Part shown: positions 1,501-31,815 of the stretch, piece by piece
How positions within the stretch are numbered: position 1 is the stretch's first letter
Layout: every line of letters begins with the position of its first letter
NCBI GenBank assembly: GCA_964612895.1
Contig: CAZTFL010000001.1
Location: 265,043 to 329,042 of the forward strand
DNA: 64,000 nt
From: Candidatus Woesearchaeota archaeon
GTDB lineage: Archaea > Nanobdellota > Nanobdellia > Pacearchaeales > GW2011-AR1
Reading direction: 5' to 3'
Notes under the pieces: generated by a model
The model's input: the letters and a program-made list of their open reading frames with translations, nothing else
Databases searched by the model: none
Told to the model about the DNA's origin: nothing
Position numbers and translations under genes: made by a program

Positions 1501-2661
1501 ATGAAACGGAGTGCAATTAATCATAAAATAAGATACCAAAACTGGAAAAATAATTATGGTAAGAGAATTCCAGATATCAGTGAAGAAAATTCAAAAATAA
1601 TATTAAATTATATTAATGATATGGAATATGGTCTTAATGTTGGAAAAAGTAGTAAAAAAGGAGGTAGAAGTTATAACCGACTTTATAATTTACAACAGAG
1701 GATGGTTTTCATAACAAAAAGATTAGAATCTTTCTATGGAGTAAAAGATTTAACTAAAATAGAAGAAAGAGAAATTCATGAATTTTTTACTGGAATGAAA
1801 AGTGGTGAAATAAAAAGAGTAGATGGTGGTATATATCAAGATCCTGCAAATTTTGTTAAAATTTTTAAAGCTTTTTGGCATTGGCATCAGAAAGTTAATC
1901 GTAAAAAAGGAATCGAAATTTATGATATTACTCAAGACTTAGATACTAGTGTTGATAAACCAAAATGGGTTTACTTAACTGAAGAAGAAATAAGGCTTCT
2001 TTATGATAAAGCTCAATATCATTACAAAGTATTAATAATGTTTCTTTTTGATACTGGGATAAGAGCTCCTAGTGAATTAATTAATATTAAAGTTTCAGAC
2101 TTTCAAAATAATTTTAAAGAATTAATAATTAGAGATGAAATAAGTAAAACTTTTGGAAGAAGAATAAAATTAATGATTTGTTCTGACATTATACGAGGTT
2201 ATATCAAAAATGAATCTTTAAAAAATGATGATTTTTTATTTAATCGAAGATCTGATACTATTAACCAATATTTACAGAGATTAGCTAAACGAGTATTGGG
2301 AGAGAAAAAAAGTCCTGCTGGCCAAAGATATTCTGAATTAACAATGTATGACTTCAGACATTGTAGTTGTTGTTATTGGTTACCAAGATATAAATCTGAA
2401 TCTGCATTAAAATATAGATTTGGTTGGAAAAAGTCAGATAAGATTCATTATTATTCTGAACTTTTAGGGATGAGAGATACTATAAGTGAAGAAGATATGT
2501 TAATAGATGTAACTAAAACAGAAATTGAAAAACAATTAACTAAATCTGAAAATAAAAATGAAATATTACAAGAAAGAGTTGATATCTTAGAAAAACAAAT
2601 GAAGATATTAGCAGAAGCAACACAAAGAATTTTATTGAAAAGTCAAGGATATTTATGTTAA
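1501..2661 (+). CDS. Tyrosine recombinase / phage-type integrase
   Basis: LFDTGIRAPSEL matches box I with the conserved Arg. DFRHCSCCYWL matches the H-x-x-R box. IHYYSELLG fits the catalytic Tyr region. The C-terminal coiled-coil tail is atypical. Confidence 0.7.
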   Translation: MKRSAINHKIRYQNWKNNYGKRIPDISEENSKIILNYINDMEYGLNVGKSSKKGGRSYNRLYNLQQRMVFITKRLESFYGVKDLTKIEEREIHEFFTGMKSGEIKRVDGGIYQDPANFVKIFKAFWHWHQKVNRKKGIEIYDITQDLDTSVDKPKWVYLTEEEIRLLYDKAQYHYKVLIMFLFDTGIRAPSELINIKVSDFQNNFKELIIRDEISKTFGRRIKLMICSDIIRGYIKNESLKNDDFLFNRRSDTINQYLQRLAKRVLGEKKSPAGQRYSELTMYDFRHCSCCYWLPRYKSESALKYRFGWKKSDKIHYYSELLGMRDTISEEDMLIDVTKTEIEKQLTKSENKNEILQERVDILEKQMKILAEATQRILLKSQGYLC

Positions 2662-2727: not shown

Positions 2728-5304
2728 ATGAAATTAAAAAAATTAAATAATAAATCTATTAAAATAATACTTCTTTTATTAATCTTCATCTCATTATCAT
2801 TAGGAATAGCATATGCTTCTGGAGCATTCTTAGGAGGAAGTAATGAAGTCTCCTTAACAAAAGGATTAGTCGGACACTGGAAATTAGACGAAGAAAGTAC
2901 GATAGATTTTACTATTAATGAATATTCTTATCCTACATTTGATACATCAAATTCAAATGGTGGATGGAGTCATTGGGGCAGGAGTGGTGCAATAGGAAGT
3001 TATTCTCAAAATACAAATAAAGATTATATTTTTAATAAATCAAATACTTATTCACATAGGGTTTCAAATGGACCTAGTGCTACAGGTGAATATCTTTTAT
3101 ATAAATCTCCATCAATCGAAGGTATTACTAATAGATCTCTTTCAGCAATTGTAAAATTAAGTGATGGAAGCCAAGTTACTAATGATAAAATCTTTCCGTC
3201 ATGGAATGCTATTACTTCAGGAAGTATTCCAAATAATATGTGGACTTCAATAGAATATTTAGGTGATGGTTTTTATTTATGTAAAGCTGAAGGTATTAAA
3301 CAAGATGGAAGTAATGATTTAGTTGGAATTTATGTTTCACCAGGCATAGAAGCTTATTTTTCTATTGTTCAATTAGAACAAAAAATCTATTCTAGTTCAT
3401 TTGTAAATGGTGCTAGAAATGGTACAATTGATGATAGAAGTGGATATTCAAATAAAGGAATTAATTATGGTGCAATTTTAACTAATGGGATAAAGGGAGA
3501 AAGTAAAGGGGCCTTAAGTTTTGATGGTATTAATGATTATATAGAATATGATGATAATAATAATCTATTTAATTCATTACCAATTAGTTTTTCTATTTGG
3601 TTTTATCAAGATGGTACTCGTAGTGGAGATTTTATTAATAAATATTATTCTGGTTCTGTTAATGGTTATAGTATTACTTTGTCTCCAACAGGAGGTATAA
3701 GACTTTATTATTTTAAAGATGCTTCAAATTATATAGAATCTTATAATGGTTATTATGGTCAACCAATATTAAATTCTTGGAATCATGTTGTTGTTAATGT
3801 TGATGAAAATAATGCGAAAATTTATTTAAATAATAATCTAGTTGTAACTAAAAATTGGGTTGGAACTTCCGGAAAACCTACAACAAATCAAAAATTATCT
3901 TTAGGTCGTTATCCTGGATCAACAAATGTTTATTCAAATAATATTATTTCAGATGCTAGAATTTATAATCGTGCCTTATCAGAAGAAGAAATAAAATTAT
4001 TATATGATTCTTATAAGCCTCAAACAACTATTGGAAATTTGAATAAAGGTTTAGTTGCACACTATCCTTTAGACGGAGGATATGAAACAAAAGATATAAC
4101 TTCATATGAAAATCATGGAACTAATTCTGGTGCAACCTTAAGTACAGGAGTAAAAGAAGAAGCAAATGGAAGTTATCTTATAGGAACAACTCAAACAATA
4201 AATATTCCTTATAAAAATCAATTGAATGTTAAAAATGCAATAACTATTTATGTTTGGTTAAAAAGAAATTCAACTTATACTCAATCGTCTGATTGTTTTT
4301 ATATTTCTAGACAACCTTCTTGGTACTTTTATGATTCTTATGGTAGTGGAGAGATTAGGGCTGAAGTATTCATAGATGGAACCCGAAGAGCAGCAAGAAC
4401 AGTATCTTTACCTTATGATAATAATTGGTATAACATTGCATATACTTACGATAGTAATACTAAAACTGGTTCTATTTATAGAAATGGATTATTTATTTCA
4501 AATATTACTTTATCTGGATTATCCAATTATTTGATTGATGATTCTTCTTCAGGTATAAATATGGGAAGCGGTGGTGCTGGGAAAAAAACATTTATGTCAG
4601 ATGTCCGTATTTATAATCGAGCATTAAGTGCAGAAGAAATAAAATTATTATATGATTCTTATAATCCTCAAACAACAGTAGCTTCATTAAATAAAGGATT
4701 AGTCTTAGACATGCCTCTAACATCAACTTGGACAAAATCTGAAACACCTGGTTCTGAAATCATAACAGATAAAACTCCTTATTCAAATAATGGGCAAAAT
4801 TATGGGACAGTACTCTCTGGTGAAGGAGCCACATTTGATGGAAGTAATGATTATATTGTAACAGGATGGGGTCAAGGACTTAATCCTTCAACAAATCCTT
4901 TAACAATAACAATGTGGGTTAAACCAAATAATGTAAATTCAGCTACTATGTTTTTTTCTAATAGACAATCGGGAGGATCAAGTAACCGTCTTTATATAAG
5001 CATATATAATGGGAAATGGGATTTAGGAATTCATACAACTACTTGGGGTAGTGGAACAATTAATGCAAATACAGACTGGAATTTCATTTCAGTTGTTATG
5101 GATGGTTCCCAAGCTACAATGAAAGCAAACTTACAAACAACAAGAACAATTTCTTATGGCTCTTATAATTTAAATTTAAATGCACATTTAGGAACACATG
5201 ATCTTAATTATTGGTATAATGGATTAATTAAAAATGTTAGAATATACAATAGGGCTTTATCAGATGAAGAAATAAAATTACTTTATGACCAAGGTAAAAC
5301 TTAA
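2728..5304 (+). CDS. Secreted LamG/concanavalin-A-like lectin repeat protein with signal peptide or N-terminal anchor
   Basis: N-terminal KLKKLNNKSIKIILLLLIFISLSLGIAYA is signal-like. Three or more LamG-type modules each end in the diagnostic motif (D/N)xRIYNRALS(x)EEIKLLYD. Confidence 0.6.
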   Translation: MKLKKLNNKSIKIILLLLIFISLSLGIAYASGAFLGGSNEVSLTKGLVGHWKLDEESTIDFTINEYSYPTFDTSNSNGGWSHWGRSGAIGSYSQNTNKDYIFNKSNTYSHRVSNGPSATGEYLLYKSPSIEGITNRSLSAIVKLSDGSQVTNDKIFPSWNAITSGSIPNNMWTSIEYLGDGFYLCKAEGIKQDGSNDLVGIYVSPGIEAYFSIVQLEQKIYSSSFVNGARNGTIDDRSGYSNKGINYGAILTNGIKGESKGALSFDGINDYIEYDDNNNLFNSLPISFSIWFYQDGTRSGDFINKYYSGSVNGYSITLSPTGGIRLYYFKDASNYIESYNGYYGQPILNSWNHVVVNVDENNAKIYLNNNLVVTKNWVGTSGKPTTNQKLSLGRYPGSTNVYSNNIISDARIYNRALSEEEIKLLYDSYKPQTTIGNLNKGLVAHYPLDGGYETKDITSYENHGTNSGATLSTGVKEEANGSYLIGTTQTINIPYKNQLNVKNAITIYVWLKRNSTYTQSSDCFYISRQPSWYFYDSYGSGEIRAEVFIDGTRRAARTVSLPYDNNWYNIAYTYDSNTKTGSIYRNGLFISNITLSGLSNYLIDDSSSGINMGSGGAGKKTFMSDVRIYNRALSAEEIKLLYDSYNPQTTVASLNKGLVLDMPLTSTWTKSETPGSEIITDKTPYSNNGQNYGTVLSGEGATFDGSNDYIVTGWGQGLNPSTNPLTITMWVKPNNVNSATMFFSNRQSGGSSNRLYISIYNGKWDLGIHTTTWGSGTINANTDWNFISVVMDGSQATMKANLQTTRTISYGSYNLNLNAHLGTHDLNYWYNGLIKNVRIYNRALSDEEIKLLYDQGKT
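3952..4029 (+). repeat. Intragenic direct repeat, copy 1 of 2 near-identical ~78-bp segments. Copy 2 is at about 4600-4677, and a third, diverged copy is at about 5233-5301.
   Basis: Copy 1 reads gatgctagaatttataatcgtgccttatcagaagaagaaataaaattattatatgattcttataagcctcaaacaac. Copy 2 reads gatgtccgtatttataatcgagcattaagtgcagaagaaataaaattattatatgattcttataatcctcaaacaac. Confidence 0.7.
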
Positions 5305-5446: not shown

Positions 5447-6304
5447 ATGGAAAGAATTAATACACGTTCTGTTTACATTGATTTCAAGAATAAAGGATTA
5501 TTAGAAAAGAAATTTAATATTAATAATAGACTCTTAACTGCATATATTATTCCTAGAACACTGGTGTCGGAAGCAAAAAAATTTTTTGAAGATAATATAA
5601 TCAATAATCGAGGTATTTACTATTTAATTGAAGAAGATGAAAATAGTCCATTACAAAAAATTTATGTTGGACAAACAATTAATGGTATAAAAAGATTAGA
5701 TGATCACTTGAAGAAAAAAAATTATTGGGGCAAGGCAATAATGTTTTTATTTGATCATAATGAGGATAATGATATCGATCTTAATGCTTTAGAAACTTAT
5801 GCTCTATCTAAATTAATAGAGCTAAGAAAATATGATGTTCAAAAATATGACGTTCAAAATAAGCAAATAACCGATAACAAAATGGATTATAATAAGACAG
5901 ATGTAATAAAAAAATGTTATAATTTAATTAAATTTTTAATGATCTCTTCAGGATATTCTTTAGAGTCAAATCAAAATAATAGTTCTATATTTAGAACAAA
6001 CAGAAGAGGAATAATTGGTTTAGGAATATATACTGGAAATTCTTTTGAATTAATTCAAGGTTCTGAAATTGATGTAAATATCCGATGTAACTTGGATAAA
6101 TATAATCAAATGCGTGAAGAGCTAATAAACGAGAATATATTAGTTAAAGAGGGTGAAAAATATATCCTAAAAAAGAATTTAGAATTTAAAACTCCAAGTG
6201 GAGCAAGTGATTTTGTTTTAGGTGGTGCTACCAATGGATGGACTGAGTGGAAAAACAATGAGAATAAAACATTAGATGAAGTTTATAGAAAAATAAATAA
6301 TTAA
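5447..6304 (+). CDS. GIY-YIG superfamily nuclease-domain protein (T5orf172/DUF4357-like). Possible restriction endonuclease partner of the adjacent MTase.
   Basis: The motif RGIYYLIEEDENSPLQKIYVGQT has GIY, a 13-aa spacer, then YVG. It is followed by KRLDDH, which supplies the conserved Arg. The gene is convergent with the MTase at 6429-7073. Confidence 0.45.
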   Translation: MERINTRSVYIDFKNKGLLEKKFNINNRLLTAYIIPRTLVSEAKKFFEDNIINNRGIYYLIEEDENSPLQKIYVGQTINGIKRLDDHLKKKNYWGKAIMFLFDHNEDNDIDLNALETYALSKLIELRKYDVQKYDVQNKQITDNKMDYNKTDVIKKCYNLIKFLMISSGYSLESNQNNSSIFRTNRRGIIGLGIYTGNSFELIQGSEIDVNIRCNLDKYNQMREELINENILVKEGEKYILKKNLEFKTPSGASDFVLGGATNGWTEWKNNENKTLDEVYRKINN

Positions 6305-6428: not shown

Positions 6429-7073
6429 TCATATTTTACCTCCATCAGATTTAGTTACATCTATCCATCTCTCGTCTAATTCAATACCAATCCACTTTCT
6501 ATTCAGTTCATTACAAGCTTTACAAGTAGAACCAGAACCTGCAAAGGGGTCTAAAATTAGGTCTCCTTCTTTAGAACTATGTAAAATAATTTTTTTCAAT
6601 AAATCTAATGGTTTTTGATGAGGATGATTTAGTTTATTATGATTAATATGTGAAGAAGTTTGTACATCAGAAAAATCAGTTAAATTATATTTTGGTTTTC
6701 CTTTTTCTAAAACTAAAATTAATTCATATTGATGCCTAAATGCCCAACCTAATCCAAAGTTATGTTTTTTCCATACGATTAAATGTCTAATATTAAATTT
6801 AGTATATCTAATAATAAATTCTGTTAAAAAAGGATAATGTTTCCAGTTTGTGAATATATAAAGAGAACGATTTTGTTTTAGGATACGATACATTTCAATT
6901 AAGGCATTACAATTAATTAAAGGATTTTCATTATTTTTGATTATTTTATTATTCCAACCATAAGCAACATTATCTCCATAAGGAGGATCTGTTAAAATTA
7001 AATCTATACAATTGTTGGGATAAGTTTTCATTATTTGAAGACAATCTCCTTGAATTATTTTATTTAGTTCCAT
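6429..7073 (-). CDS. DNA N6-adenine/N4-cytosine methyltransferase, beta-class (N4/N6 MTase domain)
   Basis: ILTDPPYG is motif IV (DPPY). DPFAGSGSTCKAC is motif I (FxGxG) and lies C-terminal to DPPY, which is the beta-class order. The protein is 214 aa. Confidence 0.75.
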   Translation of the reverse strand: MELNKIIQGDCLQIMKTYPNNCIDLILTDPPYGDNVAYGWNNKIIKNNENPLINCNALIEMYRILKQNRSLYIFTNWKHYPFLTEFIIRYTKFNIRHLIVWKKHNFGLGWAFRHQYELILVLEKGKPKYNLTDFSDVQTSSHINHNKLNHPHQKPLDLLKKIILHSSKEGDLILDPFAGSGSTCKACNELNRKWIGIELDERWIDVTKSDGGKI

Positions 7074-7328: not shown

Positions 7329-7724
7329 TTGTTTAAATGTATTAAAATTAAAATATCCAAACAAAAAAGAATTAGAATCCATTTTACAATGGCACAAAAT
7401 AAATGCCGAATTAAATCAAGAAAGTTGACTATAACTCCAATATTATTATTGTTGTTTTTGGTTTTACAATTAAGTTTGGTTTTAGCATCAAGTGAATCAG
7501 ACTTTGAAGAGATTTTACAACCATTAATGACAATTTATAACTTGGTGAAATATGCAGCAACAATAATAGCAGGACTAGTAATGTTATTTGCTGGAATAAC
7601 TTATATCTCTAGTGGATCAGATCCTGGGAAACGAGAAAAAGCAAAAAATATGGTTATGTACGTTATTATTGGTTTAGCAGTAATTTGGGCTGCACCTTTT
7701 ATAGTTGACTTAATATTGAAATGA
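7329..7724 (+). CDS. VirB2/TrbC-like or CedA1-like small pilin/membrane protein. True start is probably the internal Met at about 7389 (MAQNKCRIKSRKLTITPILLLL).
   Basis: A signal peptide ending LVLASSE is followed by two hydrophobic helices. The loop motif YISSGSDPGKREKAKNMV is shared with the N-terminus of the ORF at 9039-9860. Confidence 0.5.
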   Translation: MFKCIKIKISKQKRIRIHFTMAQNKCRIKSRKLTITPILLLLFLVLQLSLVLASSESDFEEILQPLMTIYNLVKYAATIIAGLVMLFAGITYISSGSDPGKREKAKNMVMYVIIGLAVIWAAPFIVDLILK

Positions 7725-9052
7725 AGAAATTTCTTTTTTGGGTGGTTGTTTTTTTATTACCACTAACAACCGCCCTTAATTGTCAAGAATTAAATAAAGA
7801 GTATCAAGAAATTTGTTTTAAAATTAAAAGTCTTAATTTATCTCAAGAATATGAGACTAGTCTAATTTTAGATATGATTAATAATTGGAGATTAAAACCA
7901 AATCATGAATTTGTTAATAATTGGAATTCGGGTTTAAAATTAAATAATTCTCCTTATAACAGAGGGGTTGGAGCAGAGTATATCCAAGATGCTTGGTTTA
8001 ATATTTTAACGATAAGTCCTTCTGTTAAAGAAGATAATATTCTATATGTTCCTAATAAAGCAAAAATTTTCTCTGCGTATAATTATCAAATATCCCATCC
8101 AACTAAACTTTATCCAGGAGATTGTAAAACCGAATATAAATTAGTTGAAAATACATCAACATTAGAAATTTATGCTAATAATGAATTAATTGGAAATGAT
8201 AAGATTACATCTTTTGAAATAACAGATAAATTAGATAATATCACTTTTGTAGGAATACTTTCTATAAGAGTAAGATATCAAGTAATTAGATATAGATTAG
8301 TGAATAGTGTTTGTACATTTTATCGTGATACAGATTATACAGGTGAATCTACTGTTAGAAATGATGTTTTAATTGTAAGATTGTATAATAATAATTTAAA
8401 TTTTGATTTGAATCTTACCCCACAATATAATCAAACGATTCAAGGGGAATTAATCTCAAATAATTATACAGCTATTAATTTATTCTTTGGAGATTCATAT
8501 TATCAAAAAACAAAGTATCAATATTATTATGAATTTGAATCAGGAAATGTTTTATCAATTAAAGCAAAAAAAGACGAAAAAATTAATTATTCACAAATTA
8601 TTGTGAACTCTTTTTTAAACAAAGTTATTTTTAAAGTTAGTCAACCTTCAGAATGTGAAATTAGAATTTATGATCACTTTAATTTTAATTCTAAACATTG
8701 TGAACTTAATTTTTTAGAAGAAGAAATTAATATAATAATAGATAATAAAACTCATTTTAAAGAAAATGAAACAATAAAAATAGAGATTATTCCTAGAGAT
8801 GTTTATGTTAATGTTACTTATGGAAATAAAAAATTTATAGTTAAAGATAAAATTTATTTGAATGCAATTCCAGGTCAAAATGAGATTATAATAGAATTTG
8901 ATAATAAAACCATAAGGAAAATAATAACTGTCTTTGATTCATCCAAACTAAAAACTATAAGAAATATATTCCTTATTTTAGGTTTGACTTTTGTTATTTA
9001 TATTATCCTAAAGAAATTTTATATTTCATTAAATTCAAATGAGCGAATGTAG
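7721..9052 (+). CDS. Surface/exported protein with N-terminal signal peptide and C-terminal TM anchor. Part of the transfer module.
   Basis: N-terminal FLFWVVVFLLPLTTALNC. C-terminal IFLILGLTFVIYIILKKF. The start overlaps the upstream gene by 4 nt (ATGA), and the end overlaps the downstream gene. Confidence 0.4.
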   Translation: MKKFLFWVVVFLLPLTTALNCQELNKEYQEICFKIKSLNLSQEYETSLILDMINNWRLKPNHEFVNNWNSGLKLNNSPYNRGVGAEYIQDAWFNILTISPSVKEDNILYVPNKAKIFSAYNYQISHPTKLYPGDCKTEYKLVENTSTLEIYANNELIGNDKITSFEITDKLDNITFVGILSIRVRYQVIRYRLVNSVCTFYRDTDYTGESTVRNDVLIVRLYNNNLNFDLNLTPQYNQTIQGELISNNYTAINLFFGDSYYQKTKYQYYYEFESGNVLSIKAKKDEKINYSQIIVNSFLNKVIFKVSQPSECEIRIYDHFNFNSKHCELNFLEEEINIIIDNKTHFKENETIKIEIIPRDVYVNVTYGNKKFIVKDKIYLNAIPGQNEIIIEFDNKTIRKIITVFDSSKLKTIRNIFLILGLTFVIYIILKKFYISLNSNERM

Positions 9053-9860
9053 TATTTCAAACTTAGGCTCTTGTATTATGGAAAGTTTTTCTAATTTTCT
9101 TATTGATCTATTAAATTTACCTATAAAACCTTTATTAGAAGGAATTAGAAATTTACTTATTCAACCTGTTAATATTAATCTTTTCTTAGAAATTTGGTCT
9201 ATAATAATTTATATTTTATCTTTATTTTATGGTCTTTTATTATTATTCATTGGATTTCAATTTATTGTTTCAGGCTCATCGCCAGAGAAAAGAGAAAATA
9301 GTAAGACAAATCTTGCTAATATTGTCATAATGATGGTTCTTATTCAAGCTAGTTTTTTATTGTATGAATTAGTTCTAGAAATTGTCTCATCTCTTACACT
9401 TACAATTTTTAGTTTAATCCCTTCTGATTTCTTTTTAATGATAAATAATAACTTAATTGGTTTAGAATTACAAATAGTTTTATTGATTCCTTATATTATG
9501 ACTTTAGTATTAACATTAATTTTATTATCTTTGAGATATATTTTGGTAGGGATTGGTGTTATTTTATTAGCTATTGGAATTTTTTTATATTTCTTAGAAC
9601 CATTAAAGAATTATGGTAAATTAATATTAAATTTCTTAGGAGTTCTAATTGTCTTACCCTTCTTTTATTCAATTATTTTATTAGCATCATCTAAATTTTT
9701 AGAAGTTAATATATTTTCTAATCTAAAAATTTTAGTTATGATTGGTGGTTTTAGTCTACTAAATGTTTCCAGTCTTACTTTAATATTATTTGTTATAATC
9801 AAATCAGCTCTTGCTGTTAAAACCCCAATTAAAGAAATAAAAAGCACATTTTCTAATTAA
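9039..9860 (+). CDS. Polytopic membrane protein (VirB6/CedA-like)
   Basis: About 6-7 hydrophobic helices. The N-terminal SGSSPEKRENSKTNLANIV motif is paralogous to the pilin-like protein. It is tightly packed with the flanking genes. Confidence 0.45.
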   Translation: MSECSISNLGSCIMESFSNFLIDLLNLPIKPLLEGIRNLLIQPVNINLFLEIWSIIIYILSLFYGLLLLFIGFQFIVSGSSPEKRENSKTNLANIVIMMVLIQASFLLYELVLEIVSSLTLTIFSLIPSDFFLMINNNLIGLELQIVLLIPYIMTLVLTLILLSLRYILVGIGVILLAIGIFLYFLEPLKNYGKLILNFLGVLIVLPFFYSIILLASSKFLEVNIFSNLKILVMIGGFSLLNVSSLTLILFVIIKSALAVKTPIKEIKSTFSN

Positions 9861-9861
9861 A

Positions 9862-12771
9862 ATGTACGAAATACCTCAACAATTAGAATATAAAGAAAGA
9901 ATTATTTTTGGTCTTACCTTTTCTCAATTAATCTATGCTTTTTTATTTTCATTTATTATTCTTTTAATTTTTAAAACAAATTTAACTCTTTTTATTAAAG
10001 TTTTATTATTTTGTTTTATTGTAATAATTGCTTCGGGTTTTATGTTTTTTAATTTATCAATATATCTTAAAAATTGGTATACTTGGTATAGATCACAATA
10101 TCTTGAGGGTTTTAAACTAAAAAATGAATTAGAAATTGGAGAAATAAAAGATAATTTAATTTATCATAAAAATAAAAAAATTGCTATTTTAAATGTAGAA
10201 TCAATTAATTTTTCTATTAAATCACAAAAAGAACAAGAAGCTATAATATTATCTTTTCAAAAATTATTAAATTCTATTGATTTTCCAATTCAAATTTTAA
10301 TGACTACTGAAACTTTAGATTTAAGTGATTATTTAGATGGTTTAAAAAACAAAATGTCTAAACACGAAAGAATCTTTGAATCATATCAAAATCATATCAA
10401 AGATATTATATCTAAAAATTCTGCAATGAATCGTAATTTTTATTTAATTATTCCTGAAATATTAGATATTAATGTTCAATTAAAATTATGTGAAGAAAGG
10501 TTACATAGTTTAAATTTGAGAACTTATAGATTAAAAGATAATCAGTTAAAACAAGTCTTTTCTAAAATTTTTGATAGTAATGGAGAATTACCAAATAAAA
10601 TATTAAACAATCCTGAATATCTTAAGATTGATAATAAATATCATAAAATTATTTATGCACATGGTTATCCGAGGTCTGTAGAAAAAGGATTTTTAGATAA
10701 ATTAATAAGTTGTTCTGGTAATTTTAATTTCTCTTTACATATTAATCCTCAAACAATTGAATATACATTATTAACTTTAAATAGAGAATTACAAAAACAA
10801 AGAGCTGATTTATACTCAGCTCAAATAAAAAACCAGTTTAATCCTAGTTTAGAAATTAAATATAAAGATACTAGGTTTGTACTTGAAAATTTACAAAAAG
10901 GTTCAGAAAAATTGTTTAATCTTGGATTTTATATTGATTGTAAAGCTAATAGTTTAGGAGAATTAAAATTATTATCAAGGAAAATAGAATCTGAATTAAA
11001 TTCTTTATTAATAATTCCAAAAGATTCAAGATATAGAATGATAGCAGGATTAAAATCTTGTTTACCTTTTGGTAAAGACTTTTTAAATATTAATAGAAAT
11101 ATTACAACATCAGCATTATCAGCTTTTTTTCCTTTCACTTCTTCATTTTTTAAATTTGATAAAACTGGAATTTGGCTTGGTTTAAATAAGAATAATATTC
11201 CTTTAATTAGAGATATTTTTAAGTTATCTAATTCTAATGGAATGTGTTTAGCAAGTTCAGGTGCTGGTAAAAGTTATATGACTAAATTGTTTATTACTAG
11301 ACACTTATTGAATGGTACAAAAGTGATTGTAATAGACCCACAAGGTGAATATAAGAATTTAATTAATAAATTTCAAGGACAAAGAATTGATCTTTCAAGA
11401 GAATCTAAAACAATAATAAATCCTTTAGACTTAATGGGCCATGATTATACTGAAAAAAGATTAGCTTTAGTTGATTTAATGCCTGTAATGTTAGGACAAT
11501 TAACAGAACCACAAAAATCTTTTATTGATCAAGCCTTAACAGAAGCTTACGAAAAAAAAGGAATTTATATGAATGATAATAAAAGTTGGAATAATGAACC
11601 TCCGATTTTAGGCGATGTATTAAATGTTTTAGAAAGAATGGAGAAAAAGGCCAGTAGTCTAGAGAAAAACACCTTACGAAGCCTTACAAACCGTTTAAAA
11701 TTATATGTTACAGGGGTATTCTCTTTTCTAAATAAGCATACAAATATTAATTTTAATAATGATTTTGTTTGTTTTGATATTGGTAATATGCCTAAACAAG
11801 TTAAACCAACTATAATGTTTCTTGTTTTAGATTATGTTTATATGAAAATGAAAAAAGACATTCAAAGAAAATTGTTGGTTATTGATGAATCTTGGTCTTT
11901 ATTATCTAGAACTGAAGAGTCTTCTTATATTTTTGAAATTGTTAAAACTTGTCGTAAGTTTAACATGGGTTTATTTTTAATTAATCAAGAAGTAGAAGGA
12001 ATGTTAAATTCTGAGGCTGGTAGATCTGCTCTTGCTAATTCTTCTTATACTATTTTGTTAAGACAAAAACCAGCAGTAATCGAGAGTATACAAAGAATTT
12101 TTAATTTGAGTAATGTTGAAAGAGTAACCCTTTTAACTGCTGGAATTGGAGAAGGTATACTTCTAATAGAAGATGAACATTCTGAGATTAAAATTGTTGC
12201 ATCAAGTGAAGAACATAAACAAATAACTACAAATGCTGATGAATTATTAGAAGAAAAAATCACTGAAGAAATAATAGTTTCAAGAGATATTAATATTAAT
12301 GTTGATTGTGATGTTTTAGTTCATAAGAAGAGTAAGTTATCTATTGAAGAACAAGAATATCTTATTAAAAAAGGATTTAAAGAAGAATTATTAAAGAGTA
12401 TTTCTTGTGAAACAAAAGAAAGATTCTTTGTTAAACCTAGATTTAATGAGAGTATTAATCATTTATTTGCAATATATGATATTAAAGATTATTTAGAAGA
12501 AAAAGGAATTAAAGTTGAAATCTTTGCAACTAAAAAACCTGATATTGTTTTTGAATTTAAAGGTAAAAAGCATGCAATAGAAGTTGAAACTGGTTCAATG
12601 TTAAAAGTAAAAAAAGTTTTTAATGAAAAAGTAGATAATCTTAACAAAAATTATGATAAATGGTTCTTTGTAGTGACTAATTGGAACAAAATCCCGAAAT
12701 ATAAAAATTATGGAAAAACATGGGATTATCGTTTTGTTCGAGGACAATTAGACAAACTTTTAAAAAATTAA
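9862..12771 (+). CDS. VirB4/TrbE/CedB-like conjugation-type ATPase with N-terminal TM segments and a C-terminal Hjc/restriction-endonuclease-like PD-(D/E)xK domain
   Basis: Walker A: GMCLASSGAGKSYMTKL. VirB4-type Walker B: KLLVIDESWSLL. N-terminal hydrophobic helices. The C-terminal stretch resembles the Hjc core. Confidence 0.65.
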   Translation: MYEIPQQLEYKERIIFGLTFSQLIYAFLFSFIILLIFKTNLTLFIKVLLFCFIVIIASGFMFFNLSIYLKNWYTWYRSQYLEGFKLKNELEIGEIKDNLIYHKNKKIAILNVESINFSIKSQKEQEAIILSFQKLLNSIDFPIQILMTTETLDLSDYLDGLKNKMSKHERIFESYQNHIKDIISKNSAMNRNFYLIIPEILDINVQLKLCEERLHSLNLRTYRLKDNQLKQVFSKIFDSNGELPNKILNNPEYLKIDNKYHKIIYAHGYPRSVEKGFLDKLISCSGNFNFSLHINPQTIEYTLLTLNRELQKQRADLYSAQIKNQFNPSLEIKYKDTRFVLENLQKGSEKLFNLGFYIDCKANSLGELKLLSRKIESELNSLLIIPKDSRYRMIAGLKSCLPFGKDFLNINRNITTSALSAFFPFTSSFFKFDKTGIWLGLNKNNIPLIRDIFKLSNSNGMCLASSGAGKSYMTKLFITRHLLNGTKVIVIDPQGEYKNLINKFQGQRIDLSRESKTIINPLDLMGHDYTEKRLALVDLMPVMLGQLTEPQKSFIDQALTEAYEKKGIYMNDNKSWNNEPPILGDVLNVLERMEKKASSLEKNTLRSLTNRLKLYVTGVFSFLNKHTNINFNNDFVCFDIGNMPKQVKPTIMFLVLDYVYMKMKKDIQRKLLVIDESWSLLSRTEESSYIFEIVKTCRKFNMGLFLINQEVEGMLNSEAGRSALANSSYTILLRQKPAVIESIQRIFNLSNVERVTLLTAGIGEGILLIEDEHSEIKIVASSEEHKQITTNADELLEEKITEEIIVSRDININVDCDVLVHKKSKLSIEEQEYLIKKGFKEELLKSISCETKERFFVKPRFNESINHLFAIYDIKDYLEEKGIKVEIFATKKPDIVFEFKGKKHAIEVETGSMLKVKKVFNEKVDNLNKNYDKWFFVVTNWNKIPKYKNYGKTWDYRFVRGQLDKLLKN

Positions 12772-12817: not shown

Positions 12818-13285
12818 TTAATAATTAGTTTTATCCTTTTTTTGTTCCCAAATTTTAAATGGAATTAAAGCATCTTCTCTATCTAACCACTTAATCTTAA
12901 CTTGTTTCTTATTAGCCTTTCCACTTAAAACATCATAAATAAATTTATCATCAAAACCAATTTTTTCAGCATCTTTTCTAGTACATCCATAGTATACTTT
13001 TTTCATTTTAGCCCAATGAATTGCAGAAAAGCACATTGGACAAGACTCACCAGAAGAATAAATTTCACAATCAGATAAATCAAATCTACCTAATTTTTTA
13101 CAAGCTTTTTTAATTGCAATCATCTCAGCATGATTTGTAGGATCATTTGTCTTTATAACCCTATTATGAGCTTTTGAGATTACTTTTCCATCTTTAACAA
13201 TAACTGCACCAAAAGGTCCACCATCTTTTTTTTGAATTCCTTTCTTAGCTTCTTCTATTGCTAATTGCATAAATTTATTTTTCAT
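12818..13285 (-). CDS. Zinc-dependent cytidine/deoxycytidylate-family deaminase (TadA/GuaD-like)
   Basis: HAEMIAI and SCPMCFSAI match the H(A/C)E ... PCxxC zinc-binding signature. The protein is 155 aa. Confidence 0.7.
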   Translation of the reverse strand: MKNKFMQLAIEEAKKGIQKKDGGPFGAVIVKDGKVISKAHNRVIKTNDPTNHAEMIAIKKACKKLGRFDLSDCEIYSSGESCPMCFSAIHWAKMKKVYYGCTRKDAEKIGFDDKFIYDVLSGKANKKQVKIKWLDREDALIPFKIWEQKKDKTNY

Positions 13286-13286
13286 T

Positions 13287-14225
13287 TTAACTCACCATAT
13301 TATCAACTTCAATTTTATGATTTTCCAAAATTGCTTTACCCAATGTTTGTTCAATCTTTTCATTGATTTCTTTTAATTCTTCTCTATTTTTTACTAAAAA
13401 AGCATAATATAAATTAACATAACCTACAGCTTTTATACAAATAATAAATCTTGGGTCTTGTTCAATAAGTTTCATAAAATTTTCTAATTCTTTTACATAA
13501 GAAGGATCTATTCTAGATATATAAGTATATTCTGTAAATCCTACTTTTTTCAAATCAATGATTGGGTAACATCTCTCAATAATATCTCTTTTTTTAAGAG
13601 AGTTTATTCTCCTCATAATTGAACTAGCAGTTGTATTTAATTTATTTGCTAATTCAACTGTAGAAAGTTTAGAATTATTTTTTAATAATTTTATTAAATT
13701 TAAATCTTCTTTTTTTAATTCAACACTTTCGGGACTACCTTTAATATCAACTTTTGCTTTTTTCTTAGGATTTAAGATTCTAGCAAAATAAGTTTTTGAG
13801 TTAACACTTTGAAAAGATAAATAATTTTTTATTTTATCTTTAAAATTAATTAATATTTTTGTTTGTATTTCGTCATATCTTTCAATTGTTTTAGTCCATA
13901 CAGAAATATAAAGTTTCCATTGGCTTACTTCATGAAGCATATAACAACAACTAACTTCTTCAATAGATGTTATTTTTTTCAAATATTTATTAACATCAAT
14001 AAAAGAAACTCCTTGTATGTCTAAATAAATAGAATGTCTACTAAAACCTAATTTTGGATAATTAATATTAACTGTACATTTTTTAATAATTTTTCTTTCT
14101 TCCATCTTTTTGATACGATAATTAACTGTTTGTTGTGGAAGTTGTACTGATTTTGATATCTTAGAAATGGGTTGACGGCAGTCTTGTAATAATTCAAATA
14201 AAATTAATTTGTCTTTTTCATCCAT
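13287..14225 (-). CDS. Lrp/AsnC-family transcriptional regulator with two tandem HTH+RAM modules
   Basis: There are two AsnC-type HTH segments. One is ISKISKSVQLPQQTVNYRIKKMEERKII and the other is LSTVELANKLNTTASSIMRRINSLKKRDII. The gene abuts the deaminase gene with a 1-nt gap. Confidence 0.65.
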   Translation of the reverse strand: MDEKDKLILFELLQDCRQPISKISKSVQLPQQTVNYRIKKMEERKIIKKCTVNINYPKLGFSRHSIYLDIQGVSFIDVNKYLKKITSIEEVSCCYMLHEVSQWKLYISVWTKTIERYDEIQTKILINFKDKIKNYLSFQSVNSKTYFARILNPKKKAKVDIKGSPESVELKKEDLNLIKLLKNNSKLSTVELANKLNTTASSIMRRINSLKKRDIIERCYPIIDLKKVGFTEYTYISRIDPSYVKELENFMKLIEQDPRFIICIKAVGYVNLYYAFLVKNREELKEINEKIEQTLGKAILENHKIEVDNMVS

Positions 14226-14359: not shown

Positions 14360-14617
14360 ATGCAAAGACCACTAATACCACGAACAAGAATAGATAGTGA
14401 AGGAAAAATATATTACTCTGAGAGCTTTCAAGCATGGAATACATTAAAATTAAAGAAAGAGTTATTTTCTGAATTTCCCCAATTAAAAGAAAAGAGATCT
14501 AAATTCTCATATAAATTAAATTATTTCAGAAAAATTGAAGAATTACAACTACAACTAAAAGAAATTATTAAAGAAAATGGGATTCCTTTATTACTCTGGT
14601 TTTATAAAGATGAATAA
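14360..14617 (+). CDS. Hypothetical small protein
   Basis: 85-aa ORF in an intergenic gap with no recognisable motifs. Confidence 0.25.
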   Translation: MQRPLIPRTRIDSEGKIYYSESFQAWNTLKLKKELFSEFPQLKEKRSKFSYKLNYFRKIEELQLQLKEIIKENGIPLLLWFYKDE

Positions 14618-16076: not shown

Positions 16077-17906
16077 TTATTTAATAACCGGATAAAAACC
16101 TATCCTTCCAGAGATATTATTTCCAGTAAAATGTATATGATTTAATTCATCCCTGTCTTTAGAAGGCTGTTTATTATCTAAGATAATCACTTGAACATTG
16201 TTTTCAATACAGAACTGGGATATAGACTCAAAAAAATCTTCTTGAATAGTTTCAGACTTAAGATCTTCGGGTTTGATTGTGTCTTTCTCTTTATAGGTTG
16301 TTAAGGGAGAATCAATAACTATAAATCGTGGGTGAGGTTTATCGTTTTTTAAACAATATCTAAGTAGCCCCAACATAAATGCAGCTAGATATATTGCCCT
16401 ATAACCCTTTCCATGATTTCTTCTTTCATCCCCATTGATAATAATATCATTTTTATTTGGATCAAATAAAACTTCTTTCACGCCTAACTTCCAAGAGTTC
16501 AGGAAATATTTGACGTCTTCAACAAAAGTATCATAGACTTCTTTTTCTAAGATTCTTTCTTCGCCCTTAACATTTCTTGTTTGTAATTTATTTTGGTAAT
16601 ATAAAATATCCTGATTTATCTTAGCAACCTCTTCTTTCAATAAGTCCAGTTGTATTGTTTGATCCTTTATCTTTAAAAAATCTTTTAATTGATTTTCATT
16701 TATTTGTTTTACGGGGGCAATACTGTTTTTTATTTTTATATTAATTTTATCAAAAGAGACTTTTATCAATTCATGGTTTTTGAGCACTTCTTCTTTTTCA
16801 TTTTTCAAATTAATTAATACTTCAGAGAGTTCTTTCTTTTTTATCAAGATTTTATCAGCTTCTTTTTGAATAGATTCCATAAAAGCATTGTCTAGTTTTG
16901 AAACATCGGCTCCGAATATTTTACCACATACGGGGCAGTTTTTATCCGCCAATTGATCAATTAATTGACCGCCTTCATTAATAAAATCTAATCGTTTAAG
17001 ATCGCTATCATAGTGTTTATCAAGTAAAATAAATTTTCTTTCAAGGTTATCTAATTGGTTTATTTTACTCCTTATAACATCAATTTCCTTCCAAATTTTT
17101 TGTCTTTTTTCCTCTTCAATAAAAAGCTCTTTCTGATTTTCGTTTAAAATAGATGTCAACTCTTCTATCTTTAAATTGATAGAATCTACCTTAATCTCTT
17201 TTAACCTATTATCTAAATTAAAAATAATCTTCTCTTTTTCGGATAATTCTTCTTTAAGCAATTCTATTTTGGAGTTTACTCTAATCTTAAATGTTTTAAT
17301 AGGTTCGATAGTTTCAAGTTCATCATCATCTCTCCCAGATAAAAGTAGTTTAAATAAAGAGGTCTCCATAGTTTTCTCAGTATACTGCCCGGTGTAAATA
17401 GGAGAACTCTCTGAAATTACCTCCTCTTCATTAACTAAGCATATTTTTCTTAAATTTCTAAAACTAATTTCTTGTTTTTCATTAGAATCATTTTTCTTAA
17501 GTTGACATCCCTTTAGATTTATTAAATTCAATAAAAAACCAGATATATTCTCTTCCCTACTACTCCCTTTTTTAGCTTTTAATTCTTTTGAAGCTATTTT
17601 ACCATATTCTTCTACTGAACCTTCAATGAATTCTATTTTAGAATCAAACAAATCTCGAATAATAGTATACTCTTTACCCTCATAGGTTACTAAATTTAAC
17701 AACATCTTTTCATATCCTGTAGATTCTTGTATTGGTTTTGGTTTAGACTGGGCTCCAAGCATAAAGTCCATACACTGAAAAATATATGACTTGCCTGTGT
17801 TAGATGGACCCGAGATTACATTTAGAGAATTGTCTAACTTTATTATGGTTGGCTCTTTGTCTTTTCCGATAACTCTTAATTCTTTAAAATAAAATCCTTT
17901 ATACAT
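16077..17906 (-). CDS. SMC/Rad50-like ABC ATPase, Lamassu LmuB / ABC-3C ATPase-like (DUF3732-like)
   Basis: N-terminal LNVISGPSNTGKSYIFQCMDFMLG matches Walker A of the SMC/RecF type. A long coiled-coil middle carries CPVCGK, which is Zn-hook-like. C-terminal PRFIVIDSPLTTYKE is Walker B-like. The protein is 609 aa. Confidence 0.55.
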   Translation of the reverse strand: MYKGFYFKELRVIGKDKEPTIIKLDNSLNVISGPSNTGKSYIFQCMDFMLGAQSKPKPIQESTGYEKMLLNLVTYEGKEYTIIRDLFDSKIEFIEGSVEEYGKIASKELKAKKGSSREENISGFLLNLINLKGCQLKKNDSNEKQEISFRNLRKICLVNEEEVISESSPIYTGQYTEKTMETSLFKLLLSGRDDDELETIEPIKTFKIRVNSKIELLKEELSEKEKIIFNLDNRLKEIKVDSINLKIEELTSILNENQKELFIEEEKRQKIWKEIDVIRSKINQLDNLERKFILLDKHYDSDLKRLDFINEGGQLIDQLADKNCPVCGKIFGADVSKLDNAFMESIQKEADKILIKKKELSEVLINLKNEKEEVLKNHELIKVSFDKINIKIKNSIAPVKQINENQLKDFLKIKDQTIQLDLLKEEVAKINQDILYYQNKLQTRNVKGEERILEKEVYDTFVEDVKYFLNSWKLGVKEVLFDPNKNDIIINGDERRNHGKGYRAIYLAAFMLGLLRYCLKNDKPHPRFIVIDSPLTTYKEKDTIKPEDLKSETIQEDFFESISQFCIENNVQVIILDNKQPSKDRDELNHIHFTGNNISGRIGFYPVIK

Positions 17907-18368
17907 TTAAATTACCTGAGAAAACTCTTCCCCCCATTTAGTTAAATTACTATTGATAAATTTAGATATTTTTATATCATTTTCTTTTCCAAAATAATCG
18001 CATATCCATTTAGCTGTTTCATCAATATTCCTCGAATAATCGCTTTCAAAATAACTAAGGAAATTCAAAGTATCTTTATTTTTAGAATAGTAAACACCAT
18101 TTGTTTTATATTTAACAGAAATTACTCCTTTTGAAAGGAGTGTCTGGATAGCTTCTTTGTAATTTTCTCTGAGAACAATTATTTCACAAGATCTATTAGG
18201 CAAATCAGGATGTAAACTACTTGGACCTCCAGAAATATCTGAAGAATGAAGCATTAAATAATTGTAATAAAGAATTCTTTGAAGATCTAAATCTTTATTG
18301 GAATGTTTTAGTAAAAATAGAAGCCTGATAGCTAATTCTACCCTTCCATTAAAAATTACTTCTTCCAT
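17907..18368 (-). CDS. Small middle component (LmuC / ABC-3C MC-like)
   Basis: 153-aa ORF sandwiched between the effector and the ATPase. It overlaps the effector by 13 nt and abuts the ATPase. The gene order matches three-component Lamassu/ABC-3C systems. Confidence 0.4.
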   Translation of the reverse strand: MEEVIFNGRVELAIRLLFLLKHSNKDLDLQRILYYNYLMLHSSDISGGPSSLHPDLPNRSCEIIVLRENYKEAIQTLLSKGVISVKYKTNGVYYSKNKDTLNFLSYFESDYSRNIDETAKWICDYFGKENDIKISKFINSNLTKWGEEFSQVI

Positions 18369-19423
18369 TTTATCTCCAATTTTTCATTAGCTAAATGATG
18401 ACAAATTCCCTTTTTATCAGAATTAGAAGCTTGACTAGAAACCAGGGTCGGTCTTATTTGAACAAGAGAAGAATGACTTAAAACCTTTTTTAATCTTTCA
18501 AATCCATTTTGGCAATCTTCTCTAATTTTTTCTAACACTCCTTCATAGATATCGTTTTTTAATGAGTTAAACTGCTCCATCTCCGGATCTATATCTCTTG
18601 AGAACTGTTCAAGAGATTCTGCTTCATAAAAATAAGCTCTTTGTTCCTCAAAATCTTTTTTTAAATCGCTGTTTTTATCCAGTTCTGAGGAAGAAAAAGC
18701 ATCTTTTCCAAGATAATCTGCATAAGCATCAAGTATCTTTTTTATATAAACTGCCTCGCTATTCATAATTTCTTCAGGAGGTCTTTTTGATATTGGACGA
18801 GGTTTAGATAATATTCCAAAGTGGTATGAAAAACATGGCGTCTCTTTGTATTGTTCAATAAAGTCCTTTATATCTAAAAGTTTAAACACTGAAAAATCAA
18901 ACGATTCTAAATAACTTTTTAGTTCATCTGTCAATGGAATACCTGATGTACTTATAGATTTACAACAAGAATTGTCCCAGTTAGAAATCAACTCTTTTTT
19001 GAGATTTTCTTTTGAGTTCAAAATATCCCATGCATTTGGAGTGACTCCCTTTGGAGAAAATATATAATTTTCTTTTGGAGGCGTTATACTTCCTTGTTTG
19101 CAATAATAACAAATTTTCCCAACTTCAATCAAAATCTCTTTTTTTGATAATTTCTTAGCATATTTCTTACATTGATAATTTATCCAGGTTCCATCATTTT
19201 CATAAACACCAATATCTCGTCCCTTATCTCCTGGACCCCCTATCCTAATCACTTTCACATCTTTATTTTGTTTCTTCTTAAATAAATAAAAAGCCCATTG
19301 TTCAATAATTCGTTCAAACTCTTCGTCACCAACTATCTCTAAAAATTTTATTGGATCCAAAGAGTTTGATCTAAGGATTATTCCGCCTTGAGGCATTACC
19401 GGTTCAACAAGGTCGTTTATCAT
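18356..19423 (-). CDS. Effector with N-terminal Mrr-like PD-(D/E)xK restriction-endonuclease domain (LmuA / ABC-3C effector-like)
   Basis: The segment VIRIGGPGDKGRDIGVYENDGTWINYQCKKY fits a D ... E-x-D ... QCK arrangement typical of Mrr-type REase cores. It is first in a three-gene operon. Confidence 0.5.
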   Translation of the reverse strand: MINDLVEPVMPQGGIILRSNSLDPIKFLEIVGDEEFERIIEQWAFYLFKKKQNKDVKVIRIGGPGDKGRDIGVYENDGTWINYQCKKYAKKLSKKEILIEVGKICYYCKQGSITPPKENYIFSPKGVTPNAWDILNSKENLKKELISNWDNSCCKSISTSGIPLTDELKSYLESFDFSVFKLLDIKDFIEQYKETPCFSYHFGILSKPRPISKRPPEEIMNSEAVYIKKILDAYADYLGKDAFSSSELDKNSDLKKDFEEQRAYFYEAESLEQFSRDIDPEMEQFNSLKNDIYEGVLEKIREDCQNGFERLKKVLSHSSLVQIRPTLVSSQASNSDKKGICHHLANEKLEIKWKK

Positions 19424-23765: not shown

Positions 23766-23766
23766 A

Positions 23767-31283: not shown

Positions 31284-31592
31284 AAATAAATAATCAATTT
31301 AAACTTTAAATAAATTTAGAAATTAAAAAGTATATTCTTTTATGAGTATTAAAACCTATAATGTTATTACAATGTAACCACCAAATTAAATATATTAATT
31401 GTCTTTTAATCTCTAAAAATAATATTTTCTACTTTTTAACTTTTATTCAAAAAGTGGGATAAATTTTATAAAAGTACAAAAAAGGAAAAGATATCTTAAG
31501 TGATATTCAAATAAATGATGAATCTAAAATAGAATTCTTTTTAATTAAACAATAAATAAAAATACGCCCATAAAACCCACAAAAGTCCCTAA

Positions 31593-31664
31593 CGCCCAAA
31601 CCGGGAATTGGACCCGGGTCTCGAGCGCGACAGGCTCACGTACTAGCCACTATACTATTTGGGC
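31593..31664 (-). tRNA. tRNA-Asp (anticodon GTC). CCA is not encoded.
   Basis: Hand-folded from the minus strand. Acceptor GCCCAAA pairs with TTTGGGC. D-stem GTAT pairs with GTAC. Anticodon stem TGAGC pairs with GCTCG, with loop CTGTCGC. T-stem CCGGG pairs with CCCGG, with loop TCCAATT. Discriminator is G. Total 72 nt. Confidence 0.85.
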
Positions 31665-31815
31665 ATTTCTTGACTGAAGTTTACTCCCAAATTACTTAAT
31701 CAAGATAATTTTTATTGGTTTTTGACCTTTTTAAGATTTATGTTCACTACTTTTTTTAAGTAATTTTTAATTTCTTTTTTATTATCTAAATTCTTTTAAA
31801 TAATTCGAAATATTA

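Follow-up and report, generated by a model that had tools for sequence, protein, structure and literature searches.

A gene in the 64,000-nt stretch of Candidatus Woesearchaeota archaeon DNA analysed here (contig CAZTFL010000001.1, positions 265,043 to 329,042; hereafter the window) raises the question of what a nuclease-like domain may do at the end of a type IV secretion ATPase. The gene (9862..12771, + strand) encodes 969 amino acids (aa) plus a stop codon, and the open reading frame (ORF) list together with Pfam and NCBIfam profiles shows a fusion of a VirB4-type ATPase with a C-terminal nuclease module. The first-pass annotation of this DNA had described a 969-aa VirB4-like protein with an extra C-terminal domain. 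The protein is as described, and the interpretation as a whole is supported. On the basis of sequence and structural models there is about an even chance that the module is an active, metal-dependent endonuclease that processes the DNA handled by the VirB4 of a minimal type IV secretion system (T4SS). The fusion of a nuclease to VirB4 was also thought to be undescribed, and full-text literature searches indeed gave no description of the fusion or of the DPANN gene cluster to which it belongs. Both components are of known kinds; what appears to be new is the nuclease family and the way in which the parts are combined.

The peptide quoted earlier for the C-terminal domain, ERFFVKPRFNES...AIEVETGS, is located at residues 853-912 (12418-12597). 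The coordinates first assigned to the domain, 12170-12771, include the stop codon at their end and start one base out of frame, as residue 770 corresponds to 12169. A C-terminal domain is present, but it does not start at residue 770; the module begins at ~815-820 and comprises ~150 aa. This section lies outside every Pfam, NCBIfam, PADLOC and PHROG model. An AlphaFold2 model of residues 790-969 (121 sequences; pLDDT 89.9, pTM 0.81) displays the canonical order of PD-(D/E)xK core elements, i.e., a predicted alpha-beta-beta-beta-alpha-beta fold. The nuclease core spans residues 858-969 (12433..12768, +) and consists, in module numbering, of a helix at 76-91, strands at 96-98, 106-110 and 113-120, a helix at 128-141 and a strand at 144-149. 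Ahead of the core is a small beta-alpha-beta-beta subdomain at residues ~819-857 (12316..12432, +; model pLDDT >86), whose strands and helix occupy module positions 31-33, 39-47, 51-56 and 63-68. The subdomain is also found in transmembrane (TM)-anchored and most stand-alone paralogues; in the 157-aa protein P0040 it is replaced by a Vsr N-terminal segment (PF03852, E 1.3e-8, residues 3-34).

The putative active site residues E863, P893-D894 and E907 are placed on the expected elements of the fold, alpha-1, beta-2 and beta-3, respectively, and the position of the usual Lys is a Glu (E909). The motifs are N-E863-S-x-x-H867 in helix alpha-1 (12448..12462, +), the 'PD' motif K892-P893-D894 at the start of strand beta-2 (12535..12543, +; codons checked), and E907-V-E909-T-G911 at the '(D/E)xK' position in strand beta-3 (12580..12594, +), where Glu replaces Lys. 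Conservation was assessed in two sets. Among 120 full-length fusions of 57-99% identity, E863, H867, D894, F897, E907, E909 and G911 are invariant (120/120), and the E..D..E-x-E arrangement that had been proposed is thus borne out and not a matter of chance. Among 129 diverse representatives of clusters formed at 50% identity, E909 and G911 are found in all 129, D894 and E907 in 128 each, and H867 and K923 in 126 each; at the E863 position 108 have Glu and 16 have His. K923, in the helix that follows beta-3 (12628..12630, +), is also kept in 114/120 fusions and is a candidate for a relocated catalytic Lys.

The Glu at the canonical (D/E)xK Lys position could mean that the nuclease fold is kept just for DNA binding or oligomerisation, and many PD-(D/E)xK domains of other proteins are inactive. 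Such a non-catalytic role is very improbable, however, as the four acidic residues and the His are conserved in hundreds of sequences whose identity is otherwise ~45%; strict conservation of an active site at this level of overall identity argues for catalysis rather than for a relic fold. In addition, the E..D..ExE set is catalytic in two restriction enzymes. The E-x-E variant is rare yet fully active in both BamHI (E77, D94, E111, E113) and OkrAI (E71, D86, E99, E101), each with two metal ions (PMC3025578). The catalytic site of the module would be of this BamHI/OkrAI type, formed by E863, D894 and E907-x-E909, helped by H867 and K923, and dependent on Mg.

Residues 770-969, when used as a query, have 126 relatives, and an exhaustive profile search of 1.84 billion cluster representatives detects 719 at E<=1e-3, of which 527 are at E<=1e-10. 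The domain had been likened to the archaeal Holliday-junction resolvase Hjc. At the family level this kinship does not hold: no Hjc Pfam match is seen at E<=1 and there is no PDB sequence hit, and the Hjc E-D-E-K tetrad is absent from the module, its last residue being the invariant Glu909. The best structural matches of the module include Hjc, VRR-NUC and other junction-resolving enzymes, and OkrAI is also among its Foldseek matches. Of the expected signs of a PD-(D/E)xK nuclease, conserved acidic residues are found at the putative catalytic positions, with Glu in the place of the Lys, but no PD-(D/E)xK profile matches above its curated threshold. CoiA_nuc (PF06054) is the sole Pfam family matched repeatedly (12/23 members, best E 7.9e-4); its match to the window protein is sub-threshold (E 0.045, 14.3-14.9 bits), and the alignment is limited to positions 1-53(87) of the 158 in the profile. 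An AHJR-like match in 3/23 members (E 0.02) is likewise below threshold. A search of PDB chain sequences with a single module sequence and two profiles (hmmsearch) gave no hit, and PADLOC and PHROGs gave no credible module match. Within the PD-(D/E)xK superfamily the module is best regarded as a new family restricted to DPANN, and not as a member of Hjc.

The section N-terminal to the module, residues 4-787, is of the VirB4 type by NCBIfam and Pfam profiles. It matches the CD1110-family VirB4-like conjugal ATPase (NF045971, E 9.4e-92, residues 244-770), the Mbov_0397 VirB4 from integrative and conjugative elements (ICE) (NF045975, E 1.6e-86, residues 4-787), TraC-F (TIGR02746, E 9e-43) and VirB4_CagE (TIGR00929, E 1.3e-25). 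PF19044 (P-loop_TraG) matches residues 455-759 with 87.5 bits vs a cut-off of 25.8, and the other Pfam matches in the ATPase are DUF87/HerA and AAA_10. As every NCBIfam equivalog cut-off is missed (308.5 vs 325), the fusion protein is, judged by its sequence, a divergent VirB4 member.

The protein begins with a VirB3/PrgI-like TM hairpin at residues 1-78 (9862..10095, +), which has a weak PrgI match (residues 4-75, E 5.8e-4) and helices at 20-38 and 43-62 in the full-length model. The VirB4 N-terminal domain and the P-loop ATPase domain follow at residues ~79-789 (10096..12228, +), as delimited by profiles and Foldseek. Walker A is at A464-S471 (SSGAGKSY; 11251..11274, +) and the Walker B acidic pair at D675-E676 (LLVIDESW; 11884..11889, +); this pair and G467, G469, K470 and S471 of Walker A (GAGKS, 467-471) are invariant in an alignment of 52 homologues. 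The full-length AlphaFold2 model (pLDDT 75) aligns with R388 TrwK/VirB4 (8rtd, 7o42/43; Foldseek E 4.4e-25, ~770 aligned columns) and with the C-terminal domain of Thermoanaerobacter VirB4 (4ag6, 29% identity). The VirB4 part is complete, with TM hairpin, N- and C-terminal domains and intact Walker A and B motifs, and no VirB4 profile or structure match reaches beyond ~residue 790. What lies between this point and the module is a flexible tether, residues ~790-818 (12229..12315, +). Low model confidence starts at ~759, with pLDDT 33-55 over residues 759-805 of the full-length model; in the module model the first 20 residues have a pLDDT of 50-54 and ~25 residues are disordered. The tether, ~30-45 residues long, is weakly conserved in sequence, and its length differs between homologues.

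The fusion is the last gene of an operon whose junctions are overlaps of 4 nt and 14 nt, followed by a 1-nt spacer. The first gene (7329..7724, +) encodes a VirB2/TrbC-type T4SS pilin (PF18895 E 3.7e-14, PF04956 E 8.5e-11) and the second (7721..9052, +) a 443-aa DUF8186-like protein, which is without a Pfam match here but has an orthologue with a weak match to PF26589 (DUF8186). The third gene (9039..9860, +) encodes a 273-aa polytopic membrane protein with a weak T4SS_pilin match (E 2.5e-4); this is a putative VirB6-like channel or a second pilin-like protein, the VirB6 assignment being from position only. Counted over 65 loci that carry the fusion, the recurring neighbours are the pilin or membrane protein (46/65), the DUF8186 protein (30/65), a methylase (29/65), a ~90-aa protein (19/65), an integrase (17/65), type I restriction-modification (R-M) genes in varying orientation (15-16/65) and a double winged helix-turn-helix (wHTH) regulator (10/65). 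In the 37 loci with at least 9 kb of upstream DNA, the synteny of pilin and membrane protein upstream of the fusion is present in 34. No relaxase or VirD4-type coupling ATPase is found in the window island or among the families that recur in the 65 loci; the remaining recurring families are defence or cargo genes.

In R388 structures the C-terminal ATPase domain of VirB4 is the membrane-distal end of the hexamer, so that nuclease domains fused to it would ring the cytoplasmic entrance of the motor. In classical systems this mouth is the docking place of the relaxosome and the coupling protein. Each nuclease would hang by its tether from the cytoplasmic side of the ATPase domain, the hexamer presenting a ring of such domains at the mouth, and would cut or resect the motor's DNA, which would place the DNA-processing step on the same polypeptide. 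The machine consists of the VirB2-type pilin, the DUF8186 protein, the polytopic membrane protein and VirB4, and lies on chromosomal islands that carry an integrase and adjoin tRNA genes in DPANN archaea of the Pacearchaeota/Woesearchaeota type. Because this machine has neither relaxase nor coupling protein, a nuclease that supplies DNA processing is the most economical reading. The fusion may then resemble the HerA-NurA translocase-nuclease pair, here joined covalently, and its nuclease may take the functional place of a relaxase.

However, a role in DNA import should also be considered. The pilin, polytopic membrane protein and VirB4-like ATPase match the components of the Ced/Ted systems, a set that is likewise without relaxase or coupling protein (PMC9905601, PMC11868833). 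In a Ced/Ted-like importer the nuclease would cut or degrade incoming host DNA as it leaves the VirB4 motor, and the products could be used in recombination, as with CoiA, or in nucleotide scavenging by a genome-reduced symbiont. The sole recurrent sequence signal of the module is that of CoiA_nuc, and CoiA handles imported transforming DNA. Two genes in the vicinity fit DNA scavenging, a cytidine/dCMP deaminase immediately downstream of the fusion (12818-13285, -) and a thymidine kinase just past the tRNA-Asp gene (31816-32544, +), but neither recurs as a neighbour in the 65 loci, and the CoiA signal is sub-threshold. Moreover the VirB4 belongs to the conjugative MPF-FATA type (CD1110 / ICE families) and not CedB/TedB-like, its match to CedD being confined to the P-loop (E 7.3e-8, 31.5 bits vs a 600-bit cut-off). 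Integrase, tRNA adjacency, methylase, patchy spread and multiple copies together resemble a mobile element rather than housekeeping uptake, and import-side processing is considered unlikely. Export of the island is tentatively favoured over import because of the integrase, the tRNA target, the methylase and the multiple copies. The methylase of the window is an orphan N6/N4 DNA methyltransferase (6429..7073, -; PF01555 E 6e-39; PADLOC type II / orphan methyltransferase models), whose gene is next to that of the pilin on the upstream side. Similar methyltransferases on conjugative elements and phages serve restriction evasion.

Downstream of the deaminase are a double-wHTH (Lrp/AsnC-like) regulator (13287-14225, -), of the family that recurs in 10/65 loci, and a gene for an 85-aa protein (14360-14617, +) that recurs in 19/65. 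These are followed by an ABC-three-component (ABC-3C) defence system (16077-19423, -), which has a Middle Component 2 (PF20288, E 3e-40), an effector with CTD6 (PF20282, E 4.5e-38) and a 609-aa ATPase-like protein among its components, and by a type I R-M system with two tandem HsdM, HsdS and HsdR (19536-26655, +). Further defence-type genes around the cluster are DUF2779, which likewise lies downstream, reverse transcriptase and Fic. With such surroundings, with type I R-M adjoining the cluster in the 15-16 loci noted above, and with PADLOC matches of the ATPase domain to mad8 and DndH, the fusion might act in entry exclusion or anti-plasmid immunity, a membrane-tethered nuclease destroying incoming foreign DNA and the VirB4-like ATPase working as in DndH- or MADS-type defence ATPases. 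Defence islands, however, often build up beside integrative elements without a functional link. The PADLOC matches represent generic P-loop similarity, the module itself matches no PADLOC model, and the VirB4 is complete, including its N-terminal domain, and in an operon with a pilin. A defence function is hardly to be expected here.

The fusion has a wide distribution. Homologues of the full-length protein number 916 at E<=1e-10, and a survey for the C-terminal extension, which the first-pass annotation had called for, shows that the best 120 of the 916 all carry the module. These best 120 come from metagenome-assembled genomes (MAGs) with the label Pacearchaeota, Nanoarchaeota or 'archaeon', and their annotation goes no further than 'DUF87 domain-containing' or 'ATP-binding protein'; Pfam labels in the homologues pertain to VirB4 parts only, with PF26593 being a TraC-like N-terminal domain. 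Overall the fusion occurs widely among Pacearchaeota, Woesearchaeota and Nanoarchaeota. The module family comprises 719 clusters at 50% identity, all within DPANN. A scan of one genome per GTDB species located 147 stretches that encode the module; the best 80 of these consist of 64 VirB4 fusions and 16 unfused modules, and some genomes have two or three loci. The VirB4::nuclease contigs L019, L031, L063, L024, L029, L054, L061, L084 and L085 (L numbers designate loci) sit in MAGs with non-DPANN labels, i.e., Bdellovibrionales, Babeliales, 'bacterium' and Methanosarcinales. Mis-binning of DPANN contigs is the most probable cause; the labels could instead be a trace of transfer to hosts.

Several architectures are found among the cluster representatives: one or two TM segments with a charged linker and the module (59), the VirB4 fusion (18), a stand-alone or short module (45) and others (7). 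The positive net charge past the last TM segment places the anchored module, by prediction, in the cytoplasm. Fused and anchored modules are inseparable by sequence over ~100 core positions, and thus neither a single origin of the fusion nor repeated exchange can be claimed. Two apparent variants were rejected. VirB4 homologues of ~870 aa, in which the nuclease seemed to have moved to a separate gene, keep the module and differ only in the absence of the N-terminal hairpin, and representatives with an 'N-terminal extension without TM' are truncated VirB4 fragments and not new fusion partners.

The genomic setting of the fusion may point to mobility. A gene for a 386-aa tyrosine integrase (1501..2661, +; PF00589 E 1.9e-9; phrog_1 integrase E 1.7e-16) is found in the window, and in 12 of the 37 fused loci with sufficient upstream DNA an integrase lies upstream on the same strand. 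The likely integration target in the window is tRNA-Asp(GTC) (31592..31665, -; ARAGORN, Rfam), ~29 kb from the integrase and on the opposite strand; its 3′ end points towards the island. In 7/10 fused loci checked, tRNA-Asp(GTC) is 85-180 nt directly upstream of the integrase (L007:3459-3533, L014:4100-4173, L032:1674-1745, L033:3408-3481, L046:1020-1093, L064:643-716, L070:3429-3500), and in L009 tRNA-Glu is found. In loci with unfused modules, tRNA-Ser directly precedes the integrase in L059 and L075, and tRNA-Gln is ~900 nt upstream in L044. This layout of integrase, tRNA and T4SS genes is, as a sequence pattern, the signature of a tRNA-targeting integrative element with putative mobility; the shortest loci measure ~7 kb from integrase to nuclease.

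A non-coding element of ~70 nt (1426-1495) abuts the start of the integrase gene and reads GTCACC-N5-GTGGACCGACAA...TTTATA...TCCATCGCACAC. Its DNA sequence is conserved in L072, L033, L023 and L022 and resembles an archaeal promoter with a TATA box and an operator that is palindromic in part. Further upstream, an intergenic patch at 700-1100 has a G+C content of 0.36-0.48 vs ~0.25 for the whole window and is preceded by 100 nt with a G+C of 0.02-0.14; neither an Rfam nor a tRNA match falls in the patch, and its folding energy is not in excess (z 0.96). A sigma-70 promoter/terminator scan is uninformative on this AT-rich archaeon. Directly after the integrase are genes for an 858-aa LamG/concanavalin-like surface protein (2728-5304, +) and then a DUF4357 protein (5447-6304, +), and large LamG/RCC1 proteins are also beside the integrase in L003. 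A 2177-aa ORF is present at 48604-55137 (-), and giant surface proteins are found near the T4SS cluster in related DPANN loci (2780 aa in L087). Past the tRNA-Asp gene are core chromosomal genes, i.e., thymidine kinase, phosphoenolpyruvate synthase, GatA and gyrase.

Unfused module genes also show a link to the integrase. They lie directly downstream of integrase genes, which they overlap or follow at no more than 14 nt, and these integrases (~386-395 aa) are 54-57% identical to that of the window. The pairing is found in 3/3 metagenomic loci and in 7 of ~13 evaluable reference loci (L001:5437-7493, L003:6826-8504, L005:8839-10912; further L038, L044, L045, L051, L055, L059 and L075). In L087 (JGI Ga0233410_10000046, 39 kb) a VirB4 fusion (P0164) is ~15 kb from an integrase paired with an anchored nuclease (P0075), and the fused and anchored modules are 70% identical vs ~45% typically. 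Concerted evolution of fused and anchored copies was considered and is not general, as identity within genomes is 0.34-0.78 in eight assemblies with at least two copies.

The module may therefore be viewed as a partner of the integrase that acts in site-specific recombination, e.g., by processing the Holliday-junction intermediate or the excised circle of the tyrosine integrase, the VirB4 fusion only coupling excision to transfer. Besides the direct succession of integrase and unfused module, the presence of both forms on one island of a single contig (L087) and the Hjc, VRR-NUC and other junction resolvers among the top structural matches are consistent with this role. Tyrosine recombinases, however, resolve their own junctions and have no need of a nuclease, and membrane anchoring, found in most unfused copies, is odd for a recombination cofactor. 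In addition, among unfused copies about half, and among fused loci two thirds, have no integrase within 10 kb. A recombination role of this kind is improbable, although the integrase-module pairing is fully accounted for by no reading considered here.

Several observations weigh against the proposal that the module is a nuclease processing DNA for the T4SS of a mobile island. Its assignment is made without a profile match at curated threshold, the best being CoiA_nuc with 20.2 bits vs a 20.3 cut-off, and the spatial clustering of the acidic residues is inferred from model topology. The module often pairs with integrases in the absence of T4SS genes, and its primary role may thus not be tied to the T4SS. 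A search for attachment (att) sites was negative for exact direct repeats flanking the window island, for repeats of at least 16 nt in 13 loci, and for partial tRNA 3′ copies at a mismatch of <=10%, the DNA covered being the window and +-10-kb flanks, so that the ends of the element and its mobility stay putative; the synteny of tRNA, integrase and T4SS could be vertically inherited. A tblastn search of 72,556 plasmids and 50,697 phage records with the module gave no match, and a scan of IMG/VR gave no module relative. Finally, comparable relaxase-less T4SSs of Patescibacteria are thought to be non-conjugative in function (PMC12102498).

A more far-reaching version of the nuclease-on-motor proposal, held here as tentative and somewhat doubtful, is that the fused domain is the missing 'relaxase equivalent' of archaeal T4SS DNA transfer. 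The nuclease ring would cut the excised tRNA-Asp-targeting island and one strand would be fed into the motor. The four-gene apparatus and the integrase would then form a complete self-transmissible element of ~7 kb, and the anchored copies beside lone integrases would process the DNA of mobilisable elements that borrow the apparatus.

Archaeal conjugative plasmids are all without an identified relaxase, and the way in which substrates are handled by Ced/Ted importers and by the relaxase-less T4SSs of Patescibacteria and DPANN is an unexplained gap (PMC12857230, PMC12102498). The VirB4-fused nuclease is a concrete candidate for the DNA-processing step that relaxase-less archaeal systems lack, and it may reveal how these machines process transferred DNA. 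The module also defines a nuclease family outside current domain databases, one that has a recurrent partnership with a single tyrosine-integrase family, and the loci may point to unusually compact integrative transfer elements in DPANN genomes.

A comparison with known nucleases shows how the module is set apart. Hjc and VRR-NUC have the catalytic motif E-x-K and are free dimers, whereas the module has E-x-E, is fused or membrane-anchored, and has the additional N-terminal beta-alpha-beta-beta subdomain. With BamHI and OkrAI it has in common the four-residue acidic site E..D..E-x-E with Glu for the usual Lys, but it is without sequence homology to them, its size is much smaller, recognition elements are not evident, and it displays an additional invariant His and Lys. 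CoiA of Bacillota, a resolvase of D-loops in competence, works on transforming DNA that has been imported (bioRxiv 10.1101/2024.02.06.579203) and has the same fold as the module; it is bacterial, however, and without a translocase fusion, and the module always scores under the CoiA gathering threshold.

Among transfer systems, those close to the fusion include the VirB4/TraC ATPases of the monoderm/archaeal MPF-FATA class, which have both VirB4 domains, the Walker motifs and a VirB2-type pilin in the operon; many Gram-positive VirB4s also have the N-terminal VirB3/PrgI-like TM hairpin. The fusion differs in the addition of the C-terminal tether and PD-(D/E)xK nuclease, and its locus in the absence of a relaxase or VirD4. 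The Ced/Ted systems of Crenarchaeota are, like the present cluster, minimal archaeal T4SS derivatives made up of a pilin, a membrane channel and a VirB4-like ATPase without a relaxase. Their ATPases, however, are not orthologous to the fusion (only the P-loop matches CedD) and have no nuclease domain, and the systems are chromosomal, damage-inducible and without a link to an integrase. MOBC relaxases such as pAD1 TraX and CloDF13 MobC are of the PD-(D/E)xK type and start conjugative DNA transfer (PMC12857230). Compared by description, and with nothing of this kind detected by NCBIfam in the fusion protein, they are a precedent for a restriction-enzyme-like nuclease as a relaxase; unlike the module they are free-standing, with helix-turn-helix domains and a coupling-protein partner. 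HerA-NurA offers a possible analogy at the level of the whole machine, in that a hexameric motor of the FtsK/HerA superfamily has a nuclease at its entrance (PMC9905601). NurA, by contrast, has an RNase H-like fold and is a separate protein with a role in repair rather than in transfer.

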